Of a stretch of DNA of 64,000 bases, positions 12,326 through 55,712 are shown one piece after another. The DNA comes from a virus (taxonomy: Duplodnaviria; Caudoviricetes): IMG/VR virus record IMGVR_UViG_3300009787_000007, positions 1-64,000 of that record; one strand, 5' to 3'. Position numbers and translations under genes: made by a program. Numbering within the stretch: position 1 is the stretch's first letter; the number at the start of each line of letters is the position of its first letter. The notes beneath the pieces are model-generated. The model saw only the letters and a list, made by a program, of their open reading frames with translations, was not told where the DNA came from and made no database searches.

Positions 12326-12871
12326 TTGAATAAGGTAAATAGTAGATATATGAATACTATCAGTGTAATTAATGGTTACAGTTTAAATTGGAAATTAGGA
12401 TTAGAAGAATATAAATATGGATTTATATTTTATAAAGCTTCTAAGAGTGCTAATAGAGATTGTGATTTATATAGATTATATATAGGTAGAACATTTAGTT
12501 TTTACAATTTAGAAGCTTCTATATTACATAATCCATATAAATTAGATTATGAGAAAGATAGAAAGGATGTAATAGATAAATTTATCAATAGATTTAACAA
12601 GAGAATGGAGAAGAAAGGAGCATTTAGAACTTTAATTAGAGTATTAGTTAAGTTAATGTTACTAGGTGCTGATATTGAATTAGCTTGTTTCTGTAAACCT
12701 AAAGATTGTCATGGAGATCATATAGCTAGTCAAGTTAGTTATTATTACATTCAATGTTATAAACTATTACAAACTAAATTAGGTAATGCTAGTCATATAG
12801 GTTTAGCTCAATTACATCAATTAATAGATGAAATATTAACTAAATATATTGATGAACCTATAGATTACTGA
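12326..12871 (+). CDS. DUF4326-like protein
   Basis: YIGR...LHNPY...RKDVIDKF...LACFCKPKDCHGDHI signature. The start could be the TTG at 12326 or the ATG at 12350. Confidence 0.8.
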   Translation: MNKVNSRYMNTISVINGYSLNWKLGLEEYKYGFIFYKASKSANRDCDLYRLYIGRTFSFYNLEASILHNPYKLDYEKDRKDVIDKFINRFNKRMEKKGAFRTLIRVLVKLMLLGADIELACFCKPKDCHGDHIASQVSYYYIQCYKLLQTKLGNASHIGLAQLHQLIDEILTKYIDEPIDY

Positions 12872-12905: not shown

Positions 12906-15596
12906 TTAAGGTACTGTTCTTACATTGCTTACATTAGAATAAGCACTTACACTATTTGCATTATATCCATATACTCTTACATAGTAAGTTATACTACCTA
13001 TTAAATTAGATAATAATGCAGTAGTTATATTTGTATAAGTATAAGTAGCTGTAGTATCAAGATAGGTAAAAGTATTACTTTGAGATATTTCAATAATATA
13101 ACCTGTAGCACCAGTAATAGCTGAATGAGATAGAATAGCTTGATTATTATTTACAATGGTAATAGAAGTGATTGTAGCAGCAGTAGATAAAGCACTTGGT
13201 AAACTAGGTAAAGCATTAGTAGTAACATTAATATTTTCTACCGTTGTAGTATTACTACCACTAACTCCTGCTGATTTAATATAATAAGTAATTCCAGGTT
13301 CAGCTAAATATTCATAACTACTGTTACTAGTTTCTATATATTTCTCAATATTAATAAAGTCACTTCTTCTACTAATTTCAATTAAATATAATGAATAAGA
13401 ACTATTAAAATTAATTGTAAATCTATCAAATCCTATATTACTTGTACTAGAATTAGCTGCACTTAAACTAGAATTTACTGTTAAGTCAGTTAAACTTGTA
13501 TAGTTATTTGTTAGAAAATATGCTGGTAATGATGGATTACTATAAGCATTTAAAGTTGTATCAAAATACTGAATTGTAATACTATATTCAGTGTTAGCTG
13601 TTAGATTATTTAGATAAACTGTATCTGTATCTCCTATATCTAAAGGTACTATATATCCAGTTAAAGGTGTAAATGTTCCACTAATATTTTTACTAATTTG
13701 TATTTTATAATCAGTTGATATTCCTTTCTTTAATCTAACTATTGCAGTAGTATTAGTAACATATGTATTCATTATCTTAGGATATTGATTATATGTTGAA
13801 ACTATATTACTATATAAACCTTTAATATTACTACTGTTATTATAATAATATCCTCTAATATAATAATTAATATTAGACTGTAATATATTAGCTAACTTAA
13901 ATTCATTGGTTGAACTAGTTATAGCTAAAGGATTATAACCTTGTTTTAAAAATATAAAATTAGCATCTGTAGCTACTTCAATATTATTTAAATTACCAGA
14001 CCATTCTATATACTGCATATCACTAGATATTTGTAAGATAGGACTAGAACTTAATGTAGTAAATTGATTTACACTAGAATTAATCTGATCTCCAGAACTA
14101 GTTACTCCTGTTATAAAATAATTGTAAACTGTATTCGCTTCTAGAAATACATTTAATATATAACTGGTTATATTTCCTATACTTAAATATTTATAATATC
14201 CATTACCTAAATAATTACTAGTTCCTGTAACTGAACTGTCATCTATACTCTTATATACTGTTAATAAATAATTAATATACTCACTGTTACTACTCCAATT
14301 TAATGTTATACTACTATCACTTATACTCGTATTTGTTAATAACGTAATACTAGGTAAAATAGTATTTGTAGTAAAACTACTAACACTAGATACATTTGAA
14401 CATACTGTATTTGATAGTCCAGTTATTCTTATATAATATGTAGTATTAGGTGTTAAACTATTTATATATAAACTATCAACATTACCTGTAAATGTACTAT
14501 ATATAATATTACTGAAATTACTTGTTGTACTTACTTCTATATAGTAATTACTAGCATAACTTCTCTTAACCCAAACTATCTCAACGATAGTTGAATATAA
14601 TACTATCGGTGATAATAATTGTGGTGCATCTAAATTACTATTTACTACTAACGTACTAGCACTAACTACTGTATAAGCACTACTAGTTGTACTATTAACT
14701 GCTAGTATACGTATATAATATAAAGTAGCTGTAGATAGTCCAGTAATGTTAGCATAATTTAGAGTTGTAGTATTATTCTGACTAACAAAAGTAGAAAAAT
14801 TAGGATTTGTACTAACATCATAGTTATAGCTAGTAGCACCTGATATTAAACTCCATTGTACTTGTAATGAAGTTGTATATATATTAGTTATTTGACTAAC
14901 TATAGGACTATCTAAACTAAATGTAAGATTAGCTATTGTATCAGTAGCATCTAATGTCTTGAAATGAATGATATTACTGTAATTCGATAGAGATACCGTA
15001 CTTCCAGATGTTATTTTAGTTCTTACTCTGAAATAATAGTCAGTTAATTCTGACAAAGCATTTACTTGTAGATAGTTATTTGTATTTCCTGTATCTTGTT
15101 CATTAACTACTAACGTTCCTGTACTAAAGTTATATGTTGTACTTACATCTACTAAATATGATGTAGCAGAATTTACTACGTTCCAATTCACTATAGCTGT
15201 AATCTGAGTTAATTCAGTTACACCTATTGCAACAGGTATTTGTACGTTATTAAGCGTTGTAAAGGTAAATGTAGTATAACTTGAACAAGAGTTTTTATTA
15301 CATGTTTGTAATTTTCCGTAGTAAGTAGTATTAGGAGTTAAATTACCTATATTAAATATATTATATCTAATTTCGTTATATATATAAGTATTTACACCTA
15401 GAGGATAATTATATATAAAGTTATTATAAATAGGAGAAGAGTAATCACTATTAACGCTAAGTACGAGATTAAGTTGAGTTATATATTGACTAGGATCAGG
15501 AATTTCTATAACTATATAACAGTTATAGGAATAAGGAATTAGTTGATATATAGAAGGAGGTAAAGCAGGATTAGGAGTAATTAGTACTATTATCTG
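12906..15596 (-). CDS. multi-fibronectin type III (FN3) tail fibre/adhesin, main reading frame
   Basis: About 9 FN3 repeats (W..V..AT.Y...VST..NF...L.PNT.YY.R). Manual translation shows the frame stays open 405 nt upstream of the tracked GTG at 15191, with no ATG, up to a TAA at 15599-15597. Confidence 0.8.
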   Translation of the reverse strand, partial: QIIVLITPNPALPPSIYQLIPYSYNCYIVIEIPDPSQYITQLNLVLSVNSDYSSPIYNNFIYNYPLGVNTYIYNEIRYNIFNIGNLTPNTTYYGKLQTCNKNSCSSYTTFTFTTLNNVQIPVAIGVTELTQITAIVNWNVVNSATSYLVDVSTTYNFSTGTLVVNEQDTGNTNNYLQVNALSELTDYYFRVRTKITSGSTVSLSNYSNIIHFKTLDATDTIANLTFSLDSPIVSQITNIYTTSLQVQWSLISGATSYNYDVSTNPNFSTFVSQNNTTTLNYANITGLSTATLYYIRILAVNSTTSSAYTVVSASTLVVNSNLDAPQLLSPIVLYSTIVEIVWVKRSYASNYYIEVSTTSNFSNIIYSTFTGNVDSLYINSLTPNTTYYIRITGLSNTVCSNVSSVSSFTTNTILPSITLLTNTSISDSSITLNWSSNSEYINYLLTVYKSIDDSSVTGTSNYLGNGYYKYLSIGNITSYILNVFLEANTVYNYFITGVTSSGDQINSSVNQFTTLSSSPILQISSDMQYIEWSGNLNNIEVATDANFIFLKQGYNPLAITSSTNEFKLANILQSNINYYIRGYYYNNSSNIKGLYSNIVSTYNQYPKIMNTYVTNTTAIVRLKKGISTDYKIQISKNISGTFTPLTGYIVPLDIGDTDTVYLNNLTANTEYSITIQYFDTTLNAYSNPSLPAYFLTNNYTSLTDLTVNSSLSAANSSTSNIGFDRFTINFNSSYSLYLIEISRRSDFINIEKYIETSNSSYEYLAEPGITYYIKSAGVSGSNTTTVENINVTTNALPSLPSALSTAATITSITIVNNNQAILSHSAITGATGYIIEISQSNTFTYLDTTATYTYTNITTALLSNLIGSITYYVRVYGYNANSVSAYSNVSNVRTVP

Positions 15597-15696
15597 TTAA
15601 AGTTGTAACAGATATTGTATTAGAGTAATTACTTTCTGAATCAGAATTTAATGCTTTAACTCTTAAGTAGTAAGTAGTATTAGGTAATAGTGACAT
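15571..15696 (-). CDS. 41-aa FN3 C-terminal half; likely true 5' end of the FN3 fibre gene, joined by a +1 frameshift
   Basis: ATG at 15696 gives MSLLPNTTYYLRVKALNSDSESNYSNTISVTTLTDNSTNYS*, ending TCC TAA and overlapping the open frame of the FN3 gene. Confidence 0.65.
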   Translation of the reverse strand: MSLLPNTTYYLRVKALNSDSESNYSNTISVTTLTDNSTNYS

Positions 15697-18212: not shown

Positions 18213-20903
18213 TTAATTTAACTGTATATAATTTACTACTAATGTTAGGGTACTAATAGTTGCTCCACTAAGATTAGATATAGTACATGGAATATTAGCT
18301 GTACTGCACCAGCCAAATACTAATGGAGCAAGATTAATTACATTCCATGTATTTGATGTTATTCCTTCAAATAATAATCCAACATCTCCAGTTGGAGCTG
18401 TACCTACTACTCTACCTAAATCATTAGTTTGATATGTACTATTTAGATAGAATCTAATTCGTACTGGTGTACCGCATGTAACTTTAGTTAATACATATTT
18501 AGGAGCTAAAGCTATAGTAGAGGTAAAGTTTGCATTATTAGATAAACCTACACTAAAACTAAATGCAGTAGTGCTAGTTAATATACTTGTAGTAGTAGAT
18601 ACATTTAATGAGCTATATAAATCGTAGAAAATACCTGGAGGGCTAAATGCACTAGCATATCTAGCAGATTTAGTAATCCTTAGTTGCATATATCCTGTAT
18701 AAGTACTAGAACTACCTGTGCTACCTACATATAAAGTACTTGCACTAAGGCTTCCTGTAATACTACTTGTAGAATAATCTAAATTACCATTTATAAAGTA
18801 ATATGTAACTCCGCTTAATCGTACCCAAGCTATATGATATAAGGTATTTAAAGCTAATGCTGTATTACCTGCATAGTTTGTAGTACCGGTATATATATTC
18901 ATATATCCACTAGAATTTATCTGAAATAAATAACCATTTAATGCTACTACGCAAGGAGAAGTACTGAACGAACTTATATACACATAAGCTTCTATGGTAT
19001 AGTTAAAAGTACTGAATTGTAGGGTGCTACTATTTGCTACGGTTATATATGCACTTCCATTGAAATATAAATAATTACCAGTTGGAGCAGATTGTGTACT
19101 AGCTACAGTTACTGCACTATTTGTAATTGTAGAACCATCTAATGCACTAGTATCTATAATGTTTGTACTTCCATTACTTCCAGAACCATTAAATATTAAT
19201 ACTGTATTTGCATATAAAACATCTATTGAGTTTGATACTAATGTAGTTCCTGATCCTCCTGAACCACTAGCACCTGTAGCACCTTGAGGTATTCCAAAGT
19301 TAAATACTGCTGCATTACTTGTTCCTGCATTAGTTACAGTTGCACTACTTCCAGGACTTAATGTACTTACTGTACCTACAGATATTGTAGCTGCTGTACC
19401 ACTAGCTCCACTAGGAATACCGAAATTAAATATTGCATTACTATTTGTACCTGAATTAGTTACAGTAGGTGTACTTCCAGCACTTAAACTTGTAACTGTA
19501 CCTACTTGTATCGTAGCTGAACCATTACCAGGAAACTCACTGGTAGCTGGAGTAAAATTACTTGTATATCTAGCATATCCATTAGTTACTCTAACTTCAT
19601 CTATATAACCTGTAAAATAACTATTATATGTAGTATCATTAGATACTAATCCTATAGAAAAATTACCACTATATATACTACTAGTTGTACTACCACTAGT
19701 TCCTTTAACTCCATTAACAAATACGTCTAATACTGTACTACTATGTTTTACACCTGCTACATGATACCAAGTGTTTGCTGATATTGTACTAGCACTAACA
19801 GCAGTAGTGGAATTATCATACCAATGTCTAAATACTATATAACCATTCTTTATACTTAAGAATAGTCCTGCATCACCACCTGCACCACTATAAGCATTAC
19901 TTAATATAGTAGAGAAATTTAAACTACTAGGATTAACTGTGCAGTATATCCAACATTCAAAGGTTAAATCATTACTTCCAAATGTTAATAAACTATCAAC
20001 TGTGTTTATATATAAATATGAACTTCCATTTAAATATAATGAACTTCCACCAAACATAGATTGAGTAGTAGAAATTATAGGACTTCCAGATGTAGTAAAT
20101 ATATGATTTAGTACATCTGTAAATACTGTACTATTATTACTATTATCAAAATGACATAAAACACTTACATCACTATAATATGGATCTCCACTACTACTAC
20201 CTGATGTACCTTGAGTAATACCTAAATTTAATGTTAAATTAGGTGTTGTACCTGTTATAGATGCTGTAGCTGAACTTCCACTAGCTAATGTACTTACTGT
20301 ACCTATAGTTATATTAGGTGTAGCTCCTGTATTACCTATAGGTAATCCTAAATTTAAACTATAACTATTACTTCCATTATTTACTAACGTAGCTGTAGCA
20401 CTTGAACCTGCACTTAATGTAGTAACTGTTCCTATACTTAATGTAGGTGTTGAACCTGTAGATCCTGTACTTCCTACATTTCCTTGTGGTAATCCTATAT
20501 TTAATACAACATCTCCATTAGTTCCTACATTAGTCACTGTAGCATTTGAACCAGCAGATAGTGTAGTTACAGTACCAATCGATATATTAGCTGCTCTAGG
20601 TAAATTAAAGGTTAATTGAGAAGGTGTTCCAGAACTAGTTACACTAGGACTAACATTAGGATATTCAATATTTACATTATTTATACTTACTGATGAAGCT
20701 TGAGACATTCTATACCATCTACCGTTACCAGAATTAGGTGTAATGATATAGATATTATCTGAAGTATCTGTACCACTAGAGTTATATATAAACCAAGCTT
20801 GTAATGAAACTACAGCTAATATATAACCTGTAATTACTGTTGAATCAGGTACAGCTTTTAAATCATTTAATGTATTTACTGAATATCCTATTGATGTAGT
20901 CAT
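18213..20903 (-). CDS. tail fibre with N-terminal attachment module, Gly/Thr repeats and two ConA/LamG-like domains
   Basis: N-terminal LNDLKAV...ITPNSGNGRWYR; about five IGTVTTLSAGS.AT repeats; LamG motifs FECWIY, WYHVAGV, FTGYIDEVRVT. Confidence 0.8.
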   Translation of the reverse strand: MTTSIGYSVNTLNDLKAVPDSTVITGYILAVVSLQAWFIYNSSGTDTSDNIYIITPNSGNGRWYRMSQASSVSINNVNIEYPNVSPSVTSSGTPSQLTFNLPRAANISIGTVTTLSAGSNATVTNVGTNGDVVLNIGLPQGNVGSTGSTGSTPTLSIGTVTTLSAGSSATATLVNNGSNSYSLNLGLPIGNTGATPNITIGTVSTLASGSSATASITGTTPNLTLNLGITQGTSGSSSGDPYYSDVSVLCHFDNSNNSTVFTDVLNHIFTTSGSPIISTTQSMFGGSSLYLNGSSYLYINTVDSLLTFGSNDLTFECWIYCTVNPSSLNFSTILSNAYSGAGGDAGLFLSIKNGYIVFRHWYDNSTTAVSASTISANTWYHVAGVKHSSTVLDVFVNGVKGTSGSTTSSIYSGNFSIGLVSNDTTYNSYFTGYIDEVRVTNGYARYTSNFTPATSEFPGNGSATIQVGTVTSLSAGSTPTVTNSGTNSNAIFNFGIPSGASGTAATISVGTVSTLSPGSSATVTNAGTSNAAVFNFGIPQGATGASGSGGSGTTLVSNSIDVLYANTVLIFNGSGSNGSTNIIDTSALDGSTITNSAVTVASTQSAPTGNYLYFNGSAYITVANSSTLQFSTFNYTIEAYVYISSFSTSPCVVALNGYLFQINSSGYMNIYTGTTNYAGNTALALNTLYHIAWVRLSGVTYYFINGNLDYSTSSITGSLSASTLYVGSTGSSSTYTGYMQLRITKSARYASAFSPPGIFYDLYSSLNVSTTTSILTSTTAFSFSVGLSNNANFTSTIALAPKYVLTKVTCGTPVRIRFYLNSTYQTNDLGRVVGTAPTGDVGLLFEGITSNTWNVINLAPLVFGWCSTANIPCTISNLSGATISTLTLVVNYIQLN

Positions 20904-37010: not shown

Positions 37011-40000
37011 TTAACTAGTAGGATAAGGTAAACTAGGTGGTGTAAATGGTTGTAAATATCTAGCTATTCCTTTAGTTATTCTTATTCCACTAATTAATGC
37101 ACTAATATAACCTAAGTAATATCCTAAACTTGTACTAACATTACTCCAACTAACATTCTTTATACTATCTTCTAAACTTCCATTTCTATATAAATTACAT
37201 GTTCCATTTCCATATATGTCAACTACATTCACTAAAGCTATATGTGTCCATGTAGATACGCTTATATCCTCTATAATAGCTGGTATAGTATAACCTGATT
37301 CATTATATAATCTAACACTAGATTCTTCTAGGATATACAGTAATTGAGGATAGTTAGATTGAGTTAATAAACCTGTAATTAAAGTACCATTACCTAAAGT
37401 AGATTGACTACTATTAGAATTAGAACTATTAGTATTACTATTATTTCCAATATAACTGAGTTTGGATAAATTACCAGCAGTGATAGTATTACTATTAATG
37501 AATCTTTCATTATATTCATAAAGTATATTATTAAAATTGTTATCTAGAGCTATGTCATAATAATAACCTATATTAGTATCTACATCATATATAATTCTTT
37601 GTGCAAAACCTTTACTTCCTATGAAATTATTTACATCAAATACTGGAACACTTGTACTATTTATATTTCCTATAATTATATCTGTAACATTACCAGTGTT
37701 AAGTGATTCATATCCTGGTACATATGTATCAAAATTAGATTCTGTAGATACATCTATTTGATAATTTTCAGCATTAGTAACTATATTCCAGTTAGCTTGA
37801 AATGAATTAGTAGTAACACTAGAAGAAGGTAATAAAACTGGTTGAGTTAGACGTAATATACTACTACTTTGTATATAAGCATAGAACTCAATAGTGTAAT
37901 TAATAGTAGAAGGTAAAGACTGATTTAAGTTAAATAATAGACTAGAATTAGTACCATTAAATAACATAGATTTACTTAATCCTACTGGACTATTTTGACT
38001 AGTTAAAGTTACATTATTTACAGTTATAGAAGTATTAGTATTTGATTCATCGATTATATTTATAGTAGGTTGTAATAAGAATATTACATTACTAAAATAC
38101 TGATCTGGAATATAAGCAGGTACAACAGTAGTTCTAGTTAAAGTATTACTAATTGAATTATAATTTCCTGCTAAATCTTGCATAGTATTAGCTGGTAAGT
38201 ATATACTAACATTACCTGAACTTGAAGCTACTATAGTAACTTTATATAAATTCTGATTAGGATATGAGAATAAATTACTAGCTATACCATTACTAACATT
38301 TAATAAATCTAAAGTTAAAGGATTAAGTGTATTGTTATTAAAGCTAATAAATATATCAAATTGATAAGAATTATCATTAGGTTCATTAGTATATACTGTA
38401 CAATTTAAAGCTGATAACATTATATCTACATAGGAATTATCTGTAGTAGAACTAAATACTTTATTAGGTAAATTAGGTTCATTACTTATAGCTATAGAGA
38501 AATTAACTATTCCATTAGAATAAGTATTATCTACTGTTACTGTTGAATAGTAATAATTATTGCTATATGAAGTATTAGCAATGATATTATTTATAGTTAC
38601 TGTTGGTATATTAACTAGATTAATAATAGATGAATATTTAACTGTAATTACATTGTTTATAGTAGCTAGATTTGAATTATAATTATCTGAATATATTGAT
38701 ATGTAATTAAGTAAATTAGTAGCATCAGTAATATTTTCTAATACTGTATATGGTAATCCAGGAATGTCTACTGAAGCAGCAGTATATAAAGCTTGTCCTA
38801 ATGTAACTCTTATATTAGATAGCCAATAATTACAATCAGTTATTCTATTTTGGTAATATCCTACTTTAATATCTCCTCTAGTTACATCTATTCCAGGTGT
38901 AGCAACTATTAATGCTATCCTTATTCCATTCCTATAAAATCTATATACTCCACTTTGACAAGTTACTGCGAAATGTGGATATAATTGCTGTAAACTATAA
39001 CCTGCTGTACCTAATGCTATAAAATTACCTGTATCTAAATCAGGATAACTTAATCCACTAAATAATTGCGTAGTATTAGTAACGCTTCTATATATTAATA
39101 ACTGCTTATTACTACTAAAGAAACATATACCTGTACTAGAGTTTTCGATAGAAAAGATATGACTTGATTTATTATTAGATGAATCTATTCTTAGAAAGAA
39201 CTCTATAGTCCAATCATAACTAGTTCCTGCTGTAGTAGTATTATCTGAACCTATAGCATTGAATCCTGTATATACTAATCCAGATTGTTCATTAGTAGGT
39301 TGTACTTGTAATGAACTAGTTTCTCCAAATGGATAAGTAGTTGTATCAAATGTAATTTGGTTAGCTATTACAGGAGTTAAAGTTAATCTAGCTGGACTTA
39401 GATCATATACAGTATTAGCAGTATCTAAAGGTAATTGAAGTATAGGAAATGAACTAGAATATATTCTAACTAATGAAGCACTAATAGCTGATGTTATATT
39501 GCTATCTGTAACTCCTGTTCCTTGCATACATTGTACTATTACTGGTGCTTCTTTTATAGGTTGTACTGTTATCTGATATACAGAACCTATAGTTATAGTA
39601 GAAGTATTAGTTATTGTACCATTCTCAACACCTATCTTAGTAGGATCAAATGTTGCAATAGCAGCATTAAATGTAATAGTAACTAGGAAACTACTATTTA
39701 TATAAGGATTACTACCTGATGTAAGTATAGGTAAAGGATTAGATTTATTTATAGTATATTGATTACCTTGAAAACTTAATTCACCTGCATAGTTACTAAT
39801 TAATATGTTAGTTCCACTAAACTTTAATGTTTTTCTATCTAAGAAATTTAATCCTAATATTCCATTTCCTGAACCAGTATTGGCAACTAAAGTATATACA
39901 TAATTATTATTCTTTGTTAATGAAACTATACTAGCTCCTGTTACTCCTTGTAATTGAGTTAATGAAAAATCATCTGTAGTTAATGTGTCTACTTCTTGAC

Positions 40001-42086
40001 TTAAATATATATTCCATGAAACTGTAGTTGTTGATACAGAAGCTAATGTACTTGTACAAAGAATAGCTATTATTCTAGCTCTAGGTTCAGTTATTACATT
40101 TGTACTTAATGGTAAATTAAAAATGTTATCATATGCAAAATATTCATTACTAGTAGTTGTAGAATATCTAGCTTGATTAGTAATTCTTAGTCCTTTAATG
40201 CCTACTGTTAAGTTATAAATACCTTCATTAATTCCATCATTAACACTATTGCAAGTAATTGTAGGATAGCTATTACTATTACTAGATAAACCTAAACTAT
40301 TAGTTACACTAAATAGAGTGTAATTAAAAGGTATTGTATTAGCTAAATTTCCATTTATAAATACATATAGATAATTATTAAATCTTTCAATAGCTATATG
40401 AGTTTGAGCTTCTTCATATCCTGAATTAACAGTTATAGTATTGTTATTATAATTATCATGTCTATATAGAACTAATTCATTAGTAGGTATAGTAGCTGTA
40501 CCTCTAGAATCTCCATCCCAATATATTAGAGTAGGTGAAACATTAGCTAACCAATTAGTTCCATCTTCAGATATTTTCAATCCTAAATAGTAACCACCTA
40601 CATCATATCCATCATTATAACCATATGATTCAGCTTCATATAACCATCTTAGGTTAATAGTTAATATTTTATTATTAACTGAAGTACCACTAGTTAAATT
40701 TAGTACATTCATAGTGCTATCTACATATACACCAAATCCAGTTGTAGGTACTTTAGATATTTGTTGATTAGCAGTTAATTGAGGATAATTATTATTACCT
40801 GTAGCTACACTATAGCCAGGATTAAAACCTTTATATGGAACTCCATTATGAAAATAAGTTAGATAAAATTCTATAGTCCAATTAGTATTACTTAAATTAG
40901 TATTTATAGGATTTCTACTATATACATTCTTACCATCTAATTCAACAAATCCTGTTATATAATTAGGTGTTAATTCTAATAAACTAGGATTATTTAAATG
41001 AGTTTGATAAGGAGAATAATAATATAAATCATATAAAAATGGAAAGTTAGCTAACACATAATTATAATAATTATCTATAGGATTAGCAATAGAAGTTATA
41101 TAGAAAGGTAATGAACAGCTATAAAATGATTGTTTATATCTAGATATTCCAGTAGTAATTCTAATATTAGCTAAACCACCTGAAAATGTTAATTCAACTT
41201 GATTATTATTTACATAATAAATTCCTTCTGTAGTATTCCAATAATTACTAAAAGTTCTAAAATAATTACTTCCACCTATACTTAATCTAGCTCCAGTAGT
41301 ATTAGCATTTACTCCAACTGAATAATTAAAATTATGTGTGTAATTAGTATAACTATTTACTAAATTAAAATTAATATATGTTTCTAATACATTACCATTT
41401 CTTTGTAAACATACATGATACCAAGTATTAGCTGTAATATTATTAGCTATTATATATTGATTACTACTATCATAGAAAGTTAATACATTATTAGCTAAGA
41501 ATATAGAATAACCTAAACCAGTTACATAAGTATAACTATTAATAGTAGCTATAGTTAAATTATCAGCAGGAGCAAAACAGTCTGCATAGTTAATAATAGG
41601 TTGATATTTCCAAGGTAGTGTTACTGAATCAGCATAAAAACTAAATTCTATAGTCCAATCATTAGTTCCAAAGTTAATAGGTTGTTGACCATTTAACATC
41701 ATCTCTAAAAATGTACCTTTAATACTTCCATAAAGAGTACCACTATTTAACTCAGCTACTCTTAATGTGTGATTATATTTATTAGGAATAGTTAGAAAAC
41801 TATTTACTTTATTATTACTGGTTAAATTAGCATTTATATCTGGATAATTACTATAATCTGAATCATTTATGTTAATAAAAGCTATATCTGATTGACTAGA
41901 ACTTCCTATAAAATATCTAAATTGTCTCTGTTTTGTAGAATAATCTTTATAGAACGGTAATCCTAATGTGTTTAAACTATTATCTAATCTTAATAGTAAA
42001 TCTACATTGTTAAAGTACACATCATTTACTGTAGCAGTTGTTACATTACTACATAATAAATATTTACTTAATGTTTTCTTATCCAT
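37011..42086 (-). CDS. giant tail adhesin with multiple LamG domains, bacterial Ig-like domains and an FN3 half-domain insertion
   Basis: Repeated WTIEF...HIA...GIRIT...RY LamG units; Ig-like units ending QDLAGNYN; the FN3-like SFQANWNIVTNAENYQIDVSTESNF lies inside the last LamG. Confidence 0.8.
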   Translation of the reverse strand: MDKKTLSKYLLCSNVTTATVNDVYFNNVDLLLRLDNSLNTLGLPFYKDYSTKQRQFRYFIGSSSQSDIAFININDSDYSNYPDINANLTSNNKVNSFLTIPNKYNHTLRVAELNSGTLYGSIKGTFLEMMLNGQQPINFGTNDWTIEFSFYADSVTLPWKYQPIINYADCFAPADNLTIATINSYTYVTGLGYSIFLANNVLTFYDSSNQYIIANNITANTWYHVCLQRNGNVLETYINFNLVNSYTNYTHNFNYSVGVNANTTGARLSIGGSNYFRTFSNYWNTTEGIYYVNNNQVELTFSGGLANIRITTGISRYKQSFYSCSLPFYITSIANPIDNYYNYVLANFPFLYDLYYYSPYQTHLNNPSLLELTPNYITGFVELDGKNVYSRNPINTNLSNTNWTIEFYLTYFHNGVPYKGFNPGYSVATGNNNYPQLTANQQISKVPTTGFGVYVDSTMNVLNLTSGTSVNNKILTINLRWLYEAESYGYNDGYDVGGYYLGLKISEDGTNWLANVSPTLIYWDGDSRGTATIPTNELVLYRHDNYNNNTITVNSGYEEAQTHIAIERFNNYLYVFINGNLANTIPFNYTLFSVTNSLGLSSNSNSYPTITCNSVNDGINEGIYNLTVGIKGLRITNQARYSTTTSNEYFAYDNIFNLPLSTNVITEPRARIIAILCTSTLASVSTTTVSWNIYLSQEVDTLTTDDFSLTQLQGVTGASIVSLTKNNNYVYTLVANTGSGNGILGLNFLDRKTLKFSGTNILISNYAGELSFQGNQYTINKSNPLPILTSGSNPYINSSFLVTITFNAAIATFDPTKIGVENGTITNTSTITIGSVYQITVQPIKEAPVIVQCMQGTGVTDSNITSAISASLVRIYSSSFPILQLPLDTANTVYDLSPARLTLTPVIANQITFDTTTYPFGETSSLQVQPTNEQSGLVYTGFNAIGSDNTTTAGTSYDWTIEFFLRIDSSNNKSSHIFSIENSSTGICFFSSNKQLLIYRSVTNTTQLFSGLSYPDLDTGNFIALGTAGYSLQQLYPHFAVTCQSGVYRFYRNGIRIALIVATPGIDVTRGDIKVGYYQNRITDCNYWLSNIRVTLGQALYTAASVDIPGLPYTVLENITDATNLLNYISIYSDNYNSNLATINNVITVKYSSIINLVNIPTVTINNIIANTSYSNNYYYSTVTVDNTYSNGIVNFSIAISNEPNLPNKVFSSTTDNSYVDIMLSALNCTVYTNEPNDNSYQFDIFISFNNNTLNPLTLDLLNVSNGIASNLFSYPNQNLYKVTIVASSSGNVSIYLPANTMQDLAGNYNSISNTLTRTTVVPAYIPDQYFSNVIFLLQPTINIIDESNTNTSITVNNVTLTSQNSPVGLSKSMLFNGTNSSLLFNLNQSLPSTINYTIEFYAYIQSSSILRLTQPVLLPSSSVTTNSFQANWNIVTNAENYQIDVSTESNFDTYVPGYESLNTGNVTDIIIGNINSTSVPVFDVNNFIGSKGFAQRIIYDVDTNIGYYYDIALDNNFNNILYEYNERFINSNTITAGNLSKLSYIGNNSNTNSSNSNSSQSTLGNGTLITGLLTQSNYPQLLYILEESSVRLYNESGYTIPAIIEDISVSTWTHIALVNVVDIYGNGTCNLYRNGSLEDSIKNVSWSNVSTSLGYYLGYISALISGIRITKGIARYLQPFTPPSLPYPTS

Positions 42087-42124: not shown

Positions 42125-43762
42125 CTAACCTACATTAGCTTGTACTAGAAAGATTCTTTTCTTTAATGTTCCAGAACTATCTTGATTAATTATAACAATA
42201 AATATATCTGTCTTTCCATTACCACTTAGTACAGGTATATTACCACTTGGAAACATTAAACTGCTATTCCAAGCTATAATTCCTGTCTGTTGTCTTATTT
42301 CTAATACACATGAATATGTTTGATTGTCTCCTATCGTACTAGCTACTATATTAAATGTAGTAGTTCCACCATCATTAGGTGTATTTATAATGTAATAATC
42401 ATAATTACTACTAGCATTTAAGTCTATTGAATAGCTAACAGATGTACTTATATTTATAGTAGTAGTTTTAATTGTAGGTGTAATTAAAGCTAACACGCTT
42501 GTACTTAAATCAGCAGTTGTAATACTTCCTGGTAATATAGAACTAGTTAAAACTAACCATCTTCCAGTGTTAGGGTTGCTATTAGGAATGATAGTAGTTA
42601 TACCATCATCTACACCTGTACTAGCAGCTATAAAAGCAAAACATTGGTTAACAGATTCTACAAATCTAATTTGACCATCTATATAATTAGAACTAGGAAT
42701 AGCTCTTAGTGAGGATAAATTAGTTACAGGACTAGACCAGTAACTTAATGAAGTAATTGTACTATAATCATTAATTTTAGGATAAGTAGTTATAAATAAA
42801 CCATCTGGAATAGTAGTAATAAAGTCTAATATAGGATAGACAACTAAAACTAAAGCATTATAAGCAGGTAATGGAGTGCTTAATGTAATACTATTAGCTG
42901 GATAAGCTATTAAAGTATTTACATAAGTAATACCTGTTGTAGATAAAGTATTAGCGTTATAGTCAAAATAACCTAGAACTTCTATATTAAATGAATAAGT
43001 TAAGGAAGCATCTGAACAGTAATCATTTAGTGCTATTTCACCATTACTATATGCTACTGCTGAATCATTATATATATAATACATAATAGGTACAGAGTTA
43101 TTTAGTACAGTATTTAATGAAGCACTAATTAGTTCTGTACTATTAACTTCATATAATTCCTTTCTATAATTAACATTTAATTCAGCTAATGTATTAGATA
43201 TAACTAATGACCATATACCATTTACACTACTAAAGGAATTAAAATTATCTGCTATATAACTATTTGTAGTACCATTATTATTACTTAAATATTCATAAAC
43301 ATTATTATTTGAAGTAACAGCTATTCTAAATCCGTTAGGTAATGAAGTTGTATCAGGAAATGAAGAAGTATTAGCTATAGTAGTTGTACCATTGATTACA
43401 TAATCATCATTAATAACTATATTTTCTAACGTAATAGCAGTTATACCATCTGCTTGATATAATTCTTGTTCATATATTACTCTAGCTGAACTATAAGTAT
43501 TAGTAGTTGAAACTAGTATAGCTATACTTCTCCAATCTTCATAAGCATAGGTAGAAAATGAAGTTGAACTAATAGTTATTGATTTATTATTAGCTATTAC
43601 TAAAGATGTACTAGTTGAAGGATTATTATACCCTACTCTATTTCTAGCTATAGTCCAGAAGTAATAAGTAATATTATTACCTTGAATTAGACCTGTATTA
43701 TTAGCTGTAATACTAGGTGCTGGTAAACTACTTCTACCATTTCCATATTGTGTTCTTAACAT
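42125..43762 (-). CDS. tail fibre/baseplate-associated protein
   Basis: 545 aa; contains the LSSLRAI...DDGITTIIPNSNPNTGRW module shared with the N-terminus of 18213..20903. Confidence 0.65.
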   Translation of the reverse strand: MLRTQYGNGRSSLPAPSITANNTGLIQGNNITYYFWTIARNRVGYNNPSTSTSLVIANNKSITISSTSFSTYAYEDWRSIAILVSTTNTYSSARVIYEQELYQADGITAITLENIVINDDYVINGTTTIANTSSFPDTTSLPNGFRIAVTSNNNVYEYLSNNNGTTNSYIADNFNSFSSVNGIWSLVISNTLAELNVNYRKELYEVNSTELISASLNTVLNNSVPIMYYIYNDSAVAYSNGEIALNDYCSDASLTYSFNIEVLGYFDYNANTLSTTGITYVNTLIAYPANSITLSTPLPAYNALVLVVYPILDFITTIPDGLFITTYPKINDYSTITSLSYWSSPVTNLSSLRAIPSSNYIDGQIRFVESVNQCFAFIAASTGVDDGITTIIPNSNPNTGRWLVLTSSILPGSITTADLSTSVLALITPTIKTTTINISTSVSYSIDLNASSNYDYYIINTPNDGGTTTFNIVASTIGDNQTYSCVLEIRQQTGIIAWNSSLMFPSGNIPVLSGNGKTDIFIVIINQDSSGTLKKRIFLVQANVG

Positions 43763-43774
43763 ATTTTATATTAC

Positions 43775-43969
43775 CTATCTACTTTGTATAGTTTTAATTG
43801 TTTGATATTTAGTAATAGGGATTATATAACTATTACCAACGTGATCTACTTTTAATCTATCACCTTGATTAGTTATATTAGGTCTAATAGCTATAAAAGC
43901 ATTGGTAAAATTAGCAATAGTTTGACTATCTATATTAGGATCTGTTTGTTGATTAAAATTAAATCTCAT
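43775..43969 (-). CDS. small hypothetical protein
   Basis: 64-aa ORF filling the gap between co-oriented genes. Confidence 0.55.
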   Translation of the reverse strand: MRFNFNQQTDPNIDSQTIANFTNAFIAIRPNITNQGDRLKVDHVGNSYIIPITKYQTIKTIQSR

Positions 43970-43983
43970 GTTAATATATCATA

Positions 43984-46635
43984 TTACTGATTAGGTGATA
44001 AATCTAACCATCTACTAAAATTAGTTGGTATAGAGGTTATAGGTGTTCCAAAGTTACTAGGTAAGTTAGGATTAATTAATACTTTTACTGATGAAGTATT
44101 ACTATTTACATTAGCTAATTGTACAGTATTTGTACTTATTCCTAAACTAGTAATATAATTACCTGCTTCTATATTTATTGGTTGTAGAAAAGAATTACCT
44201 TTAGAATATTGTACACTAATTACACTTCTTTTCACTATCCAGTTACCTGTAATTCCTGGTACTTGTATATAAGCATTTGTAGTTATATTACTTATACCTT
44301 TATTGAAATTTAACTGGCATGAGATAGTAGAACCATTATTAATGTTATCCATTATTAGTTTAAATTTTGCACCATTTAAAGCTTCTTGTAAATTCTCACA
44401 TGCTGATATATTTACACTAGCTATATATTGTCTAGCACTATTCTGTATTGTACTAGTAATATATGTAACACTATTTAAATAACTATTATTTATACTAGTT
44501 TTAGATTCTTGATACATAGGTTTAACTATAGTAGCTCTAGGTGGTCTACCATCACTTAAGTTAAATGAAGTGTGTGTAACTCTACTTTTATAGCTATTAT
44601 CTTGTGCTACTCTAATACTAGTTAATGTAGTATACTGATCATCTTTATCTAATATCTGATCTGGAAAACTAGTATTAATATTACTTGTACTAATACTAGG
44701 TAAACTATTACTTTCAATACCATAATCACTTACTTTCATATAAGTATGTACATTATTATAATATGTACCAGTATCACTTAAACCAGCATTAATATTATTT
44801 AATATATCACTGATGCTTGAATACTCACTATATATGAGAGGTAATTGAGGTCTAGTATTTTTAGATGGAAGTATACCATATTTAGTAAATTCATATTCTT
44901 CTGAACCAGAAGTAATTACAATAGGATTAGTACCGTAGTAATTTCTAGAGAAAGGACTATAATTAGGATTACCTGATAAACCAATAGAAGTTTTTAGTCT
45001 ACTTTTAGCTGTAATCATTAAATTAGGTTCCCAATTAGGATCTGGAAATAATACTGGAATTGGTGTAGTATCTGTTTCAGATTGATTTACTTGATTAGCT
45101 GGAATATATTGTACAGTCCAATCTACATTATCTGTATCAGTATAGTATTTACTATAAGGTTCTACTACATAATCTACTCTTTCAAATATAGGTATCTTTC
45201 TATATAAATATTGTTCTAAATTAACTTTTGCACTATATAACATCCAATTATACTGCTGCTGAGTTAGTGAATTAGCACCACTAGTAAGTACACTTTTAGA
45301 ATTAACTATAGTATTTAAATTTAACCACGCTGATATACTACCTTTAGTCCATTTAGTAGCATCTTCAGTAGCAAATCTTTTTAATTCCCATCCTGTAGTC
45401 TGTTCTGCTACTAATACTTGCATATTAGAATATAAATACTGTTGATAATTACTAGGAATTGTTACAGGTGTTAATGTACCATCACTATTCTGTAACATAG
45501 GATTAATTTGAGGATTAAAACTTTGATATATATATGTAGTAGCTTTAATACTTATTAATCTCCATACCATAGCATTACTAAACGCTGCACTATCTGGATA
45601 ACCTAACTTATTAGCTTGTATACTAGTTAGTACTTCTTGAAAAGCATTACCACTATTTATTACATCAGATGTAATTTGACTAATTATCGCATCAGTTTCA
45701 GTATTTGCATATGTAGGATCAGCTACTAATTCTAAAGCTGAATGAGCATAACCCCAAGTAGCACTAATTTCAGTAGCAGGTTGACTAAATTTATATGAAG
45801 TAATCTTACATGATTTAGTTTCACCTGAACTATCAAACATTATAGATAAGTCTCTAGGATATATACTATTGTTCATAGTTTCTGGTGGTGCTAAATGAGG
45901 ATTATAATCACCTTCATATGTTACATAGTCACTAGGTTTAATCTGAATATAAATTTTAGCGTTAACTCCTGTATCATAGTTATCTTTCTGTGACCATGTT
46001 AATAATGTATTTTTATATGTAGGAACACTATTAACTCCTAAAGTTACATTAGAAACTATTCCTGAGTTAATTCTTCCACTAGAACCTAATGAAGTGAATG
46101 ATAGATTATCATTATTAAATTTATAAACTAAACCTAATATATTTAACTTATCATCTATTAATTGCTTTAATGTAATAGTATCACTAACACTAGGATTATT
46201 TGATATCTCAACTAAAAATGCAGGTGGTGAAATTGTACCAGCATTAATTACTTTACCTAAAGCATAATTAACTAATAATCCTATAGAAAAATAATAACTT
46301 GAATTAGTTTTTATACTGTATTGATTCTTATATGCAGTTAGAAAATCTTTAGTTACTATTGGATATTCATATAATCTTTTACTTATATGAGTATAAGTAT
46401 ATGTAATCTGTTTTTGATTAGCTGAAGTAATATTATTTTGTATACATACATCAGCAGTAAAATTTTCTAACGTAAAAGTCAGTCCATTGAATATAAAATT
46501 ACTTCCTATTGACCTAGTTACTAGATCAGGTATATATTCAACTAAAGTTAATCTAGGATAATCATTTAAACTAGATTCACATTGTATACTACCATTCTGT
46601 ATTAAAGATTGTACTAGATTTAAATTAGTTGACAT
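43984..46635 (-). CDS. central tail/tail-tip hub-like protein
   Basis: 883 aa; size and position a few genes after the tape measure. Confidence 0.55.
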   Translation of the reverse strand: MSTNLNLVQSLIQNGSIQCESSLNDYPRLTLVEYIPDLVTRSIGSNFIFNGLTFTLENFTADVCIQNNITSANQKQITYTYTHISKRLYEYPIVTKDFLTAYKNQYSIKTNSSYYFSIGLLVNYALGKVINAGTISPPAFLVEISNNPSVSDTITLKQLIDDKLNILGLVYKFNNDNLSFTSLGSSGRINSGIVSNVTLGVNSVPTYKNTLLTWSQKDNYDTGVNAKIYIQIKPSDYVTYEGDYNPHLAPPETMNNSIYPRDLSIMFDSSGETKSCKITSYKFSQPATEISATWGYAHSALELVADPTYANTETDAIISQITSDVINSGNAFQEVLTSIQANKLGYPDSAAFSNAMVWRLISIKATTYIYQSFNPQINPMLQNSDGTLTPVTIPSNYQQYLYSNMQVLVAEQTTGWELKRFATEDATKWTKGSISAWLNLNTIVNSKSVLTSGANSLTQQQYNWMLYSAKVNLEQYLYRKIPIFERVDYVVEPYSKYYTDTDNVDWTVQYIPANQVNQSETDTTPIPVLFPDPNWEPNLMITAKSRLKTSIGLSGNPNYSPFSRNYYGTNPIVITSGSEEYEFTKYGILPSKNTRPQLPLIYSEYSSISDILNNINAGLSDTGTYYNNVHTYMKVSDYGIESNSLPSISTSNINTSFPDQILDKDDQYTTLTSIRVAQDNSYKSRVTHTSFNLSDGRPPRATIVKPMYQESKTSINNSYLNSVTYITSTIQNSARQYIASVNISACENLQEALNGAKFKLIMDNINNGSTISCQLNFNKGISNITTNAYIQVPGITGNWIVKRSVISVQYSKGNSFLQPINIEAGNYITSLGISTNTVQLANVNSNTSSVKVLINPNLPSNFGTPITSIPTNFSRWLDLSPNQ

Positions 46636-54400: not shown

Positions 54401-54893
54401 GTTCTACTTTTGCAAAAGCATTTATAGCTTTACCCGACCATTCAACTACATATTCAGTATTAAATACTGCATCAGCAGCTAATCCTATCTTCTTAAATAC
54501 ATCTGATGTTTTCTCTAAGTCAGCTATATTTTCAGATAACTCTTCACTACCTGATATGGCTTTAGCAAAAGTTAATCCTTCAGCTACACCACTAAATTCT
54601 CTAATAGCTTTCTTACCTTCTATAAAGATTTCTTTAGCTATATCTAAATTAGTAAATACTGCATATAAACTAGCACCAACTCCTACTAAACTACCTAGTG
54701 ATTTACCCATAGCAGCAATACTTTTATCTGCTTTCTCTGCTACTCCAACTATTCCTTTTAAATCACTATCTAATTCTTTAAATCCACTTAGACTTTTCTT
54801 AAAACTACCTAAATTATCTTTTAATCCATCAAATTCTTTATTTAAATCTAGGAAGAAACTACTTAATGTCTCATTATATACTTTAGCTGTCAT
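48498..54893 (-). CDS. tail tape measure protein (TP901-like core)
   Basis: 2131 aa, helical and A/K-rich; TP901-type core AFAKVEQ...QYDIASAGF...SQAGFG...LFTTTKVGLLT...GVDFEDVTAALAGLT.KG; follows the frameshifted chaperone. Confidence 0.92.
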   Translation of the reverse strand: MTAKVYNETLSSFFLDLNKEFDGLKDNLGSFKKSLSGFKELDSDLKGIVGVAEKADKSIAAMGKSLGSLVGVGASLYAVFTNLDIAKEIFIEGKKAIREFSGVAEGLTFAKAISGSEELSENIADLEKTSDVFKKIGLAADAVFNTEYVVEWSGKAINAFAKVEQAAYRLSTVTVQGNEQSIDSIDKTIESMRELQKQTNFAVGSVALLNTQYDIASAGFTKQKDTNNVGKASINLSQAGFGNVGGSTNAIVRVLKSLDEGSDQAEKRAAQLFTTTKVGLLTLDQLTGEIGSLSVQAKSLGVDFEDVTAALAGLTLKGVTTSEASTKINALFNEIASGSEEANKYLANFRDSAGKPIQLNASSLKEKGLKGIIDDLKSATGGDTSVIQKLFSTKEAQDAVKLLISLGDDYGQFVDRIKNASTENLSSEAKNRAKTLVGAYEEGINKSQASIEDFGKGFKPDALQGLIQGNKLIEEFADKTATTTGETVGFLTSIATKAKAIGGFLLSATGILGFFAAFKGVGSVLGGVKDSLFGTKDKTNDDGSVTTGKKGLLTGFKKENETIWESVKRNASLAADNIENRFSEAIARIAAKVKELNAEVSQVGSNSEGEASSTPLTYSREDAYKAPYVDRSGRRSALEANSAITTAESVEEEAVKPKFTGKTFTEHLAGANTFFQGRESGIEKVIGEGANQKLGQGISTAARGFDMFKNSAFGLKTAFSAVLATGKEMLLMFAGSAAIIGIVGGAISYVTTVFSSLTQLLDHSTIPELQTMRDTLNDFKDVKGISDIVDDLDPLAGKVTGVNEALDQSIDIVNALGGAWKSVTGQTKVYGVIKDTINDAQGKLTSDIDENLSNSKKGVFGAKTDAGKIAEDKLNNGLDLSSEDKSALEAEQRHRIEEIDARIALQRQKIAAFDSKGDGNKEEGNQLKTDLTTLEKTSEEQKKQLGLQTKQLELKDAVRRLQSLDITIPLNIQLSTDREEAVKAQIKDVTDLFKDGINGVLDKPEAFNNLKNKLDTTFKGIQAEAELDPQSAVKLKEQLENSLGKDNLTKLYKANPELLQGASTTNAAITQGISKNAQNTLTSKTAVLDSASNLGSNSTAIALDKYQSNLTYINELATNLSKELADPATSLARQAEILAQIEELEAKRLSLNADAQIRAELDGRKQTLSVAQELLNLEQIKLGLYSQENKFDLFSMSLSQAKLDAAIKEVAVKKEGLEISSREDEIKKQAIITSLQDKVTRDKNNANTVSNLGDTNLSDKQQSNIKSIQDNTKKKIDSINQEYLSKKKISSDNAYTFDDNQKGADDKAAITDALINISRNSANPQNQKDLERILGKDKADKLNQATIPDKDTESLLFTGNKLNNGKEITNLINRNRLGENYDNPLTKLATGLNLYTPAGSVDNAGKILNDRDQSKLDSDIKAGQNRNKELNIANRNNDDAINKTNINFNKVNQNRDVANYNSDNIKGIIGNSNSSNINSNNINSSNNSKLTTAQQDASNSKFLNELKLFNADYEGAIKVSTLTIENEYAAREKSIKQGELLAQSLGKISGLTDIFGNSVAGAGLELINFQAAKPYERLNKDAEEARKQVGNAQNLREKAVTGLDKLLADAVNSGASKETIAKISDSRNTAIKQRDLGKSEAASDLNSINQNTAIGKVYTQLQEDTLSIKSKYAQREAFSNNSSEVANAYGSFSSGLGSVLNSISPNSSYAAKLNTQAVSAKASADIETRGISKDKQFDLLDERLKGLDQLIEVSKQTGVDPNKIKQLTTTRNDTVKEIGITKDLVNQRNSLQDANDKLSIFSAKLSESSTTIAEQIDILTKESSITKDSIDFQQRQRDLASASNKSGANLQSSFFSFLGKNSPITDILQQRLDVKGVDEDTKLAKAKNTTDAQKEILDLTLQKAQLSLEEQGYENALTQTALLGDVLGTLKGEKTNFSSSDLVQQSIANITQKIQQSRGLNAAKSDLIDQKLNYVPTELDTKNTNLDRDALAKKNNILGSNLLPANFDLIKDNVNGTKKALEDFNYNDYKSPSLSDPEYKAGLDKLKNQIHLVNPSDANSLNKLASSFNANGNANGTVSVQAPISITIPVNGTSSAASDENFQNDLKVFVGKQVNTSLDKLSQALLAAVSK

Positions 54894-54924
54894 TTATATA
54901 CCTTCTATATAATCTATATAATCT

Positions 54925-55712
54925 CTATTTACCATATAGTAAATCAACTGATTTATCTTTAATTCTGAATAGATTAAACGGTTTATCTAGATGTAACCAG
55001 TTATATTTATTATAAGCTTTTCTATCTAAGAAGTTATTAAAGACATTATTTTCTATCTCCTGTATTTCATCTTCAGGATAAGCTTTATTATTACCATTAA
55101 TATCTATTAACTCTTTACAATCCCAATAATCTAAACTTTTATATAAATTTAATCCATTTTCAGGATATGCACATAATAAACAATTTAATAGTAATAAACT
55201 ACCTTTGAAATTATTCTCCTTTAATCTAGGATAATTTAATTCAGTTAATCTTTTTCTTTCTCTAACTTTTCTTTCTCTAACTTTCTCTTCTCTTGTAATG
55301 CTTGATTCGCTATCTTGTTGTATGGCAAAAAATGTAGTTGACTTACCTTTGATGCTGATACATCACTAATTTCTCTAGTATTATGGTCTAAAGCACTATT
55401 GAAGAATAAAGTAATTAATTGTTCCCAGTTATCCTCTATATCACTAAACTCTAAATGTTTTTGTTCAGTATTCTTACTAGAAATTATAGGTAATAATGAA
55501 CATGCAATAGTTAAATCACTTCTAATTTCTGGATCTGTAATTATTGAACCAAATGCTCCATCTAACTCAATATATTTATTGATTAACCTATCTTGAATTT
55601 CTAGTAGTTGATCCATATCAGCTAGTGCTGCTCTACCTATATCTACTACTGAACCGTTATCTAGAGTAACTTTTAATGTGTTATAACTTGGTTTTGATTT
55701 TACAATAGTCAT
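54925..55712 (-). CDS. tail assembly chaperone, long -1 frameshift product (lambda GT-like), about 262 aa
   Basis: Slippery heptamer T TTT TTG at 55332-55326 in the 155-aa ORF; the -1 frame is open without an ATG to a TAG at 54927-54925 (manual translation ...LLNCLLCAYPENG...DLLYGK*). Confidence 0.8.
55245..55712 (-). CDS. tail assembly chaperone, short form (lambda G-like)
   Basis: 155-aa ORF two positions upstream of the tape measure, carrying the slippery site. Confidence 0.75.
   Translation of the reverse strand: MTIVKSKPSYNTLKVTLDNGSVVDIGRAALADMDQLLEIQDRLINKYIELDGAFGSIITDPEIRSDLTIACSLLPIISSKNTEQKHLEFSDIEDNWEQLITLFFNSALDHNTREISDVSASKVSQLHFLPYNKIANQALQEKRKLEKEKLEKEKD

Follow-up and report, generated by a model that had tools for sequence, protein, structure and literature searches.

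The window analysed here is a stretch of 64,000 nucleotides from an 86-kb IMG/VR virus record, which is estimated to be 59% complete. Two of its genes, both on the minus strand, contain FN3 sequence (Table 1). The first encodes a 1691-aa protein, P0001, in which two tandem FN3 modules interrupt the last LamG domain; both modules stop after strand E. The second encodes a fibre protein, referred to below as the donor, which begins with an orphan F-G hairpin and continues with nine FN3 repeats at a spacing of about 95 aa.

The nearest cultured relatives of this virus are the Pseudanabaena cyanophages PA-SR01 and Pam2, whose adhesins share 36-37% identity with P0001. The G+C content of approximately 27% and the Asn/Ile-rich proteins encoded in the window suggest a different, AT-rich host. 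"Adhesin" is used as a working name for the 1691-aa protein and seems a reasonable one. The orthologue of this protein in PA-SR01, a siphovirus whose tail measures about 300 nm (PMC10286775), is encoded downstream of the tape-measure gene; this points to P0001 being a tail-tip or fibre protein. Presence of the adhesin and the donor in the virion is a prediction.

Table 1. Position of the adhesin and donor genes and of their parts in the window.
Feature	Coordinates	Strand	Remarks
1691-aa tail adhesin-like protein P0001, putative socket carrier	37011..42086	(-)	ORF; Pfam Laminin_G_3 and Big_12
Last LamG jelly roll, N-terminal part	37863..38114	(-)	aa ~1325-1408
FN3 half 1	37659..37850	(-)	aa 1413-1476; strands A, B, C, C' and E; without F-G
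FN3 half 2	37449..37643	(-)	aa ~1482-1546; strands A-E and a short F remnant; half 1 duplicate
Linker back to LamG	37383..37442	(-)	aa ~1549-1568; low-complexity, poorly conserved
Last LamG jelly roll, C-terminal part	37014..37382	(-)	aa 1569-1691; AF2 pLDDT 88-97
FN3 fibre (donor) gene	12906..15696	(-)	orphan F-G hairpin and nine FN3 repeats; broken in this contig, intact (930 aa) elsewhere
N-terminal orphan F-G beta-hairpin, candidate plug	15598..15696	(-)	aa 1-33, MSLLPNTTYYLRVKALN...SVTT
2-bp (TA) deletion site	15584..15585	(-)	relative to L036, L037 and L038; creates the 41-aa ORF and a +1 shift

Complementary FN3 fragments in two genes

An FN3 profile of 79 positions was built from the fibre's own repeats and used to scan the adhesin. 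The sole match found by hmmsearch covers aa 1422-1477 and corresponds to profile positions 4-56; the adhesin of the complete relative G003 gives two partial matches, at positions 4-53 and 9-60. Profile-profile comparison of the orthologue alignment with FN3 (hhalign) places half 1 at positions 1-53 with a probability of 97.8% and half 2 at positions 1-61 with a probability of 76-87%. Both are FN3 (PF00041) fragments, with no end-to-end profile match. The interruption of the last LamG of the adhesin by two N-terminal FN3 halves, first described in an earlier note made from the DNA sequence, is confirmed by both methods.

The two halves are separated by a linker of only 7-8 residues and share the same motif spacing: G/S-F-x3-W, then Y-x-[VI]-D...F, then I-x-x-G-[ND]. 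Half 2 is therefore considered a duplicate of half 1. It ends in a short remnant of strand F, which is followed by a disordered, low-complexity linker. A hairpin-only profile found no F-G-like hairpin in the adhesin. Completion of half 1 by the hairpin that follows it in the adhesin was considered and rejected; this hairpin has the same motifs, at the same spacing, as strands A-B, to which it is hence homologous. It may have a structural role in half 1.

In an AF2 model, the strands of half 1 lie at model residues 102-156 (pLDDT 80-87) and those of half 2 at model residues 166-230 (pLDDT 63-88); the linker after half 2 has a pLDDT below 50 at model residues 233-252. A LamG/ConA-like jelly roll (PF13385) spans both flanks of the insert, with structural matches covering model residues 9-371. 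Foldseek and VIA searches with this model returned LamG-type matches only, none of which is informative on the insert. These matches include the lectin-like receptor-binding domains of clostridial neurotoxins, which have only the jelly roll in common with the adhesin.

The donor gene starts with the F-G part that the halves lack, as the earlier note had also proposed. The 41-codon ORF at its start (15571-15696) matches the last third of FN3 only, at positions 55-83 of 84 in the Pfam fn3 profile and at positions 51-77 in the fibre-derived profile. The donor N-terminus is thus an FN3 (PF00041) fragment (positions 50-79) with no end-to-end profile match; with the hairpin profile the candidate plug scores 36 bits, the second best of all hairpins. 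The repeats that follow were said to be complete. Nine FN3 repeats are indeed present, but two of the nine match the profile only from position ~25. Since the donor consists of a hairpin and whole FN3 repeats and lacks an open socket, it is not expected to polymerise head to tail.

Within the window, the region that was first described as one FN3 fibre gene occupies two frames. The 41-codon ORF ends in TAA, and the +1 frame is open for 896 codons (12906-15596); no ATG, GTG or TTG is found in this frame before 15191. This is explained by a 2-bp TA deletion. The same phage has been assembled independently as L036, L037 and L038, of which two are Logan contigs (60.6 and 29.2 kb) and one is from JGI; all three have the identical 110-aa gene upstream. 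At ~15584 they read TATA instead of the TA of the window, and they contain an uninterrupted gene for 930 aa, located at 1475-4267 in L036. The sequence at this site is ...AATAGTACTAATT... in the window and ...AATAGTATACTAATT... in the other assemblies; L036 shows no other mismatch to the window over 2791 nt. The donor gene is therefore whole in this phage population.

A DUF4326 gene (window 12326-12871, plus strand) lies directly after the donor on the opposite strand, and the same arrangement is found in L036 and in the divergent relatives L032 and L033. This makes the donor the last gene of its late operon there.

The adhesin halves and the donor hairpin jointly cover the FN3 profile. The acceptor halves end at profile position 53-61 while the donor starts at 50-53; as half 1 ends at 53-56, the break between half 1 and the donor lies in the E-F turn. 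The acceptor end reads ...I-x-G-[NDS], and the donor start reads L-x-P-x-T-x-Y, one or two residues after the Met.

Conservation, exclusivity and co-occurrence

A blastn search against phages gave no match. Scans of IMG/VR with single proteins also gave no match; relatives were found when alignments were used. For the adhesin, a full profile search of 1.84 billion representatives yielded 18 full-length orthologue clusters, and the clusters together with IMG/VR loci form a set of 26 sequences with 27-55% identity over the C-terminal region. Both F-G-less halves are present in the same loop in 21 of 21 cluster representatives (inspected residue by residue) and in five of five IMG/VR sequences (by alignment). 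Six residues are invariant in the 26 adhesin orthologues: L1413, P1416, F1429, W1433, Y1442 and F1452. The conserved core of FN3 includes a Trp in strand B and a Tyr in strand C; of the six residues, W1433, Y1442 and F1452 belong to this core in half 1. Conservation is lower in half 2, with a column identity of 0.28 compared to 0.39 overall; the column identity of the linker is 0.15. In one adhesin orthologue, P0049, the disordered linker after half 2 is the exact site of an insertion of ~75 residues, which indicates that this position tolerates added modules.

The donor start M-[ST]-L-x-P-x-T-T-Y-Y is found in all of approximately 30 orthologue clusters (31-100% identity) and in 13 IMG/VR loci. 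The motif TTYY.R.KA, which includes the Tyr corner in strand F, shows little or no variation. Of all 30-aa windows of this ~900-aa protein, the hairpin is the most conserved, within the top 0.1% of windows; its mean pairwise column identity is 0.67, compared to 0.42 for the donor overall and 0.53-0.56 for the best internal hairpins.

The earlier note had raised the case of a homologue in which the FN3 gene begins with a whole first domain; such a homologue was looked for, and none was found among about 40 donor orthologues. An A-E part encoded upstream of the donor was also considered. It was rejected, as an in-frame stop precedes the donor orthologues by no more than 14 codons and the genes upstream of them vary between clades. 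Other viral FN3 proteins recovered by the scan that yielded the donor orthologues start with whole domains; consequently, the orphan hairpin is not a general habit of such proteins.

The adhesin and donor genes contain the sole FN3 sequences in both the 86-kb record and a 100%-complete relative of 148 kb, and the hairpin profile found no F-G hairpin outside the donor gene in either genome. The two genes occur together in all 13 informative genomes: that of the window, ten further IMG/VR records, PA-SR01 and Pam2. The ten records are G002-G010 and the 40-kb record 3300035689_000034, which is behind L011 and L048. If only cultured isolates and genomes with a completeness of at least 98% are counted, the pair is present in seven of seven; one 58%-complete record contains the adhesin only. 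The question of whether related phages keep both half-domains as a pair can thus be answered in the affirmative. The paired plug and socket sequences represent four distinct clades only.

The distance between the adhesin and donor genes is 9-22 kb. They are never adjacent, and in the PA-SR01 clade they are located on opposite strands; this arrangement is not that of a simple end-to-end gene fission.

A candidate split-FN3 joint and its alternatives

On balance, the two features probably form a split-FN3 plug-and-socket joint, in which the donor hairpin docks into one or both of the F-G-less adhesin modules and fastens the fibre to the tail protein. The fibre protein (930 aa, made up of a 30-residue F-G hairpin and nine FN3 beads) would be made separately from the 1691-aa adhesin. 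Two FN3 modules in one surface loop of the last LamG, both without strands F and G, would offer the sockets. The hairpin would insert beside strand C of one module, or between both; the C'-C-F-G sheet would then be whole again, with the conserved Trp/Tyr core buried. The product would be a complete FN3 sandwich built from two chains, with the flexible nine-bead fibre fastened to the last LamG of the adhesin. A free amphipathic F-G hairpin should expose core residues, as should an FN3 domain without half of its C'-C-F-G sheet; both the hairpin and the F-G-less FN3 are under strong constraint. We infer the binding of the two pieces, the choice of half and the stoichiometry from sequence.

A number of observations count against docking. 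Each genome has a single recognisable donor hairpin for two acceptor halves. The lower conservation of half 2 and the separation of the adhesin and donor genes also count against it, as does the AF2 model of the insert alone, which is of fair confidence (pLDDT 63-88); going by this model, the fold of the insert may be self-sufficient.

A self-sufficient insert would be the outcome if the two A-E modules in tandem form a pseudo-twofold pair by packing together, giving a closed 10-stranded sandwich that forms without the donor. The hairpin would then serve elsewhere, for example in homo-oligomerisation of the fibre or on another tail protein. The clear duplication of the halves and the shortness of the linker between them are consistent with such a pair, whose geometry would bring the ends of the insert together, as insertion into a loop requires. 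Two sockets and one plug are a poor fit to simple 1:1 docking, and AF2 is fairly confident over the insert as a monomer with no partner present. However, AF2 often gives good pLDDT to the remaining strands of a truncated domain; the pLDDT of the insert is therefore non-discriminating. In addition, a self-complementing insert gives no account of why the sole orphan hairpin and the sole F-G-less modules occur together in every genome and abut at the same loop. It is the strongest of the alternatives, though less likely than docking.

A more elaborate form of docking would use one plug for two half-sockets. In this form, the two A-E modules would share a single F-G hairpin located between them; its strand F would pair with half 1 and its strand G with half 2, in each case along strand C, and a three-piece double sandwich would form only when both proteins meet. 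Split-FN3 docking could then be a general, exchangeable wiring code for the appendages of environmental phages. This proposal is speculative and must be considered improbable.

The half-domains could also be an evolutionary scar, i.e. the tolerated, functionless result of an old rearrangement; this was the alternative offered in the earlier note. Fibre genes commonly recombine at repeat boundaries, and the region looks mosaic, as the neighbouring 896-aa LamG protein has no full-length orthologue but has partial matches to many proteins. The conservation data contradict a scar and make it very unlikely. No orthologue has lost either feature, even at about 30% identity; no other donor segment is as well conserved as the hairpin, and half 1 shows no variation at its FN3 core residues. 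Furthermore, simple gene fission offers no way for an N-terminal half to end up in the LamG loop of a gene that is not linked.

A search of 5.8 billion proteins gave no full-length orthologue of the 896-aa LamG protein itself (window 18213-20903, minus strand). Its matches to many unrelated collagen-like or fibre proteins are limited to short modules, which make up 8-10% of its length and have 55-70% identity; it looks like a mosaic, recently assembled fibre gene.

A free 41-aa peptide acting as the plug, which the earlier note had put forward, or a programmed +1 ribosomal frameshift at UCC-UAA producing the fibre, would fit the TAA at the end of the 41-codon ORF and the open +1 frame beyond it in this contig, but can be dismissed with near certainty, since the peptide arises from the contig-specific 2-bp deletion, a shift is not needed in the three same-phage assemblies that encode the intact 930-aa protein, and the donor frame is uninterrupted in all other orthologues.

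Known fold-completion systems and cultured relatives

In chaperone-usher pili, an Ig-like fold without its last strand is completed by the N-terminal extension of another subunit; the resulting non-covalent joint is very stable. Docking of the donor hairpin would be similar in that an Ig-like fold is completed by the N-terminal extension of another chain. However, pili lack one strand (G) whereas two strands (F-G) are missing here, and pili polymerise head to tail with the help of a chaperone and an usher whereas the joint proposed here would connect two different proteins. Fragment complementation has also been engineered in FN3. Going by the title of their 2005 article in Protein Sci, Dutta, Batori, Koide and Koide reportedly rebuilt an FN3 domain from two fragments with high affinity; the split in that case is artificial, and the likeness is drawn from the title alone.

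The earlier note described a joint of this kind as not known in phages. This is too strong, as one solved precedent shows a phage virion protein completing the fold of another. In the baseplate tripod of Lactococcus phage Tuc2009, the C-terminus of BppU is a hairpin of 25 residues that completes a sheet in domain 2 of BppA; in the crystal structure, this composite domain resembles a titin domain (PMC4742702). As in Tuc2009, a terminal beta-hairpin is found on one protein and an incomplete sandwich on another, here at the level of sequence and profile. In contrast to Tuc2009, where the hairpin is C-terminal, the hairpin is N-terminal here and is recognisable by sequence as an FN3 F-G hairpin. 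The putative socket also differs, as it consists of two F-G-less FN3 modules in tandem within a LamG loop; nine FN3 repeats make up the fibre part of the donor, whose gene is 9-22 kb from that of the adhesin, and the pair is known from sequence alone. No solved structure of the adhesin or donor protein, or of a relative, was found.

What appears to be new here is a socket that would be internal, nested in a LamG loop and duplicated, together with a candidate plug formed by the N-terminus of a multi-FN3 fibre that is encoded far away. The family is also new in this context, as some of its members are cyanophages in culture that allow a test of the idea. Should the joint prove real, it would explain how an accessory FN3 fibre is attached to a tail adhesin in a family with almost no annotated structural genes. 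It would represent a type of fold-completion joint that can be recognised by sequence, beside the one solved phage example. It would also provide an annotation rule, by which an orphan F-G hairpin and an F-G-less FN3 predict virion partners that bind each other.

Only 17 of the 166 ORFs of PA-SR01 have homology to genes of known function, and its virion proteins were analysed by SDS-PAGE only; a 99-kDa band was assigned to ORF46 by size alone (PMC10286775). The PA-SR01 FN3 donor, at 899 aa, has approximately the same predicted size as this band, which makes the assignment to ORF46 ambiguous. The relevant spans in the PA-SR01 genome (L034, MT234670) are 42604-45288 and 62255-64954. Since PA-SR01 and Pam2 are both in culture, the docking prediction is directly testable. 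Homing endonuclease genes are located near both genes in PA-SR01: a putative group I intron endonuclease gene (54863-55642), on the opposite strand, overlaps the 3' end of the adhesin gene, and another homing endonuclease is encoded about 2.7 kb from the donor gene.
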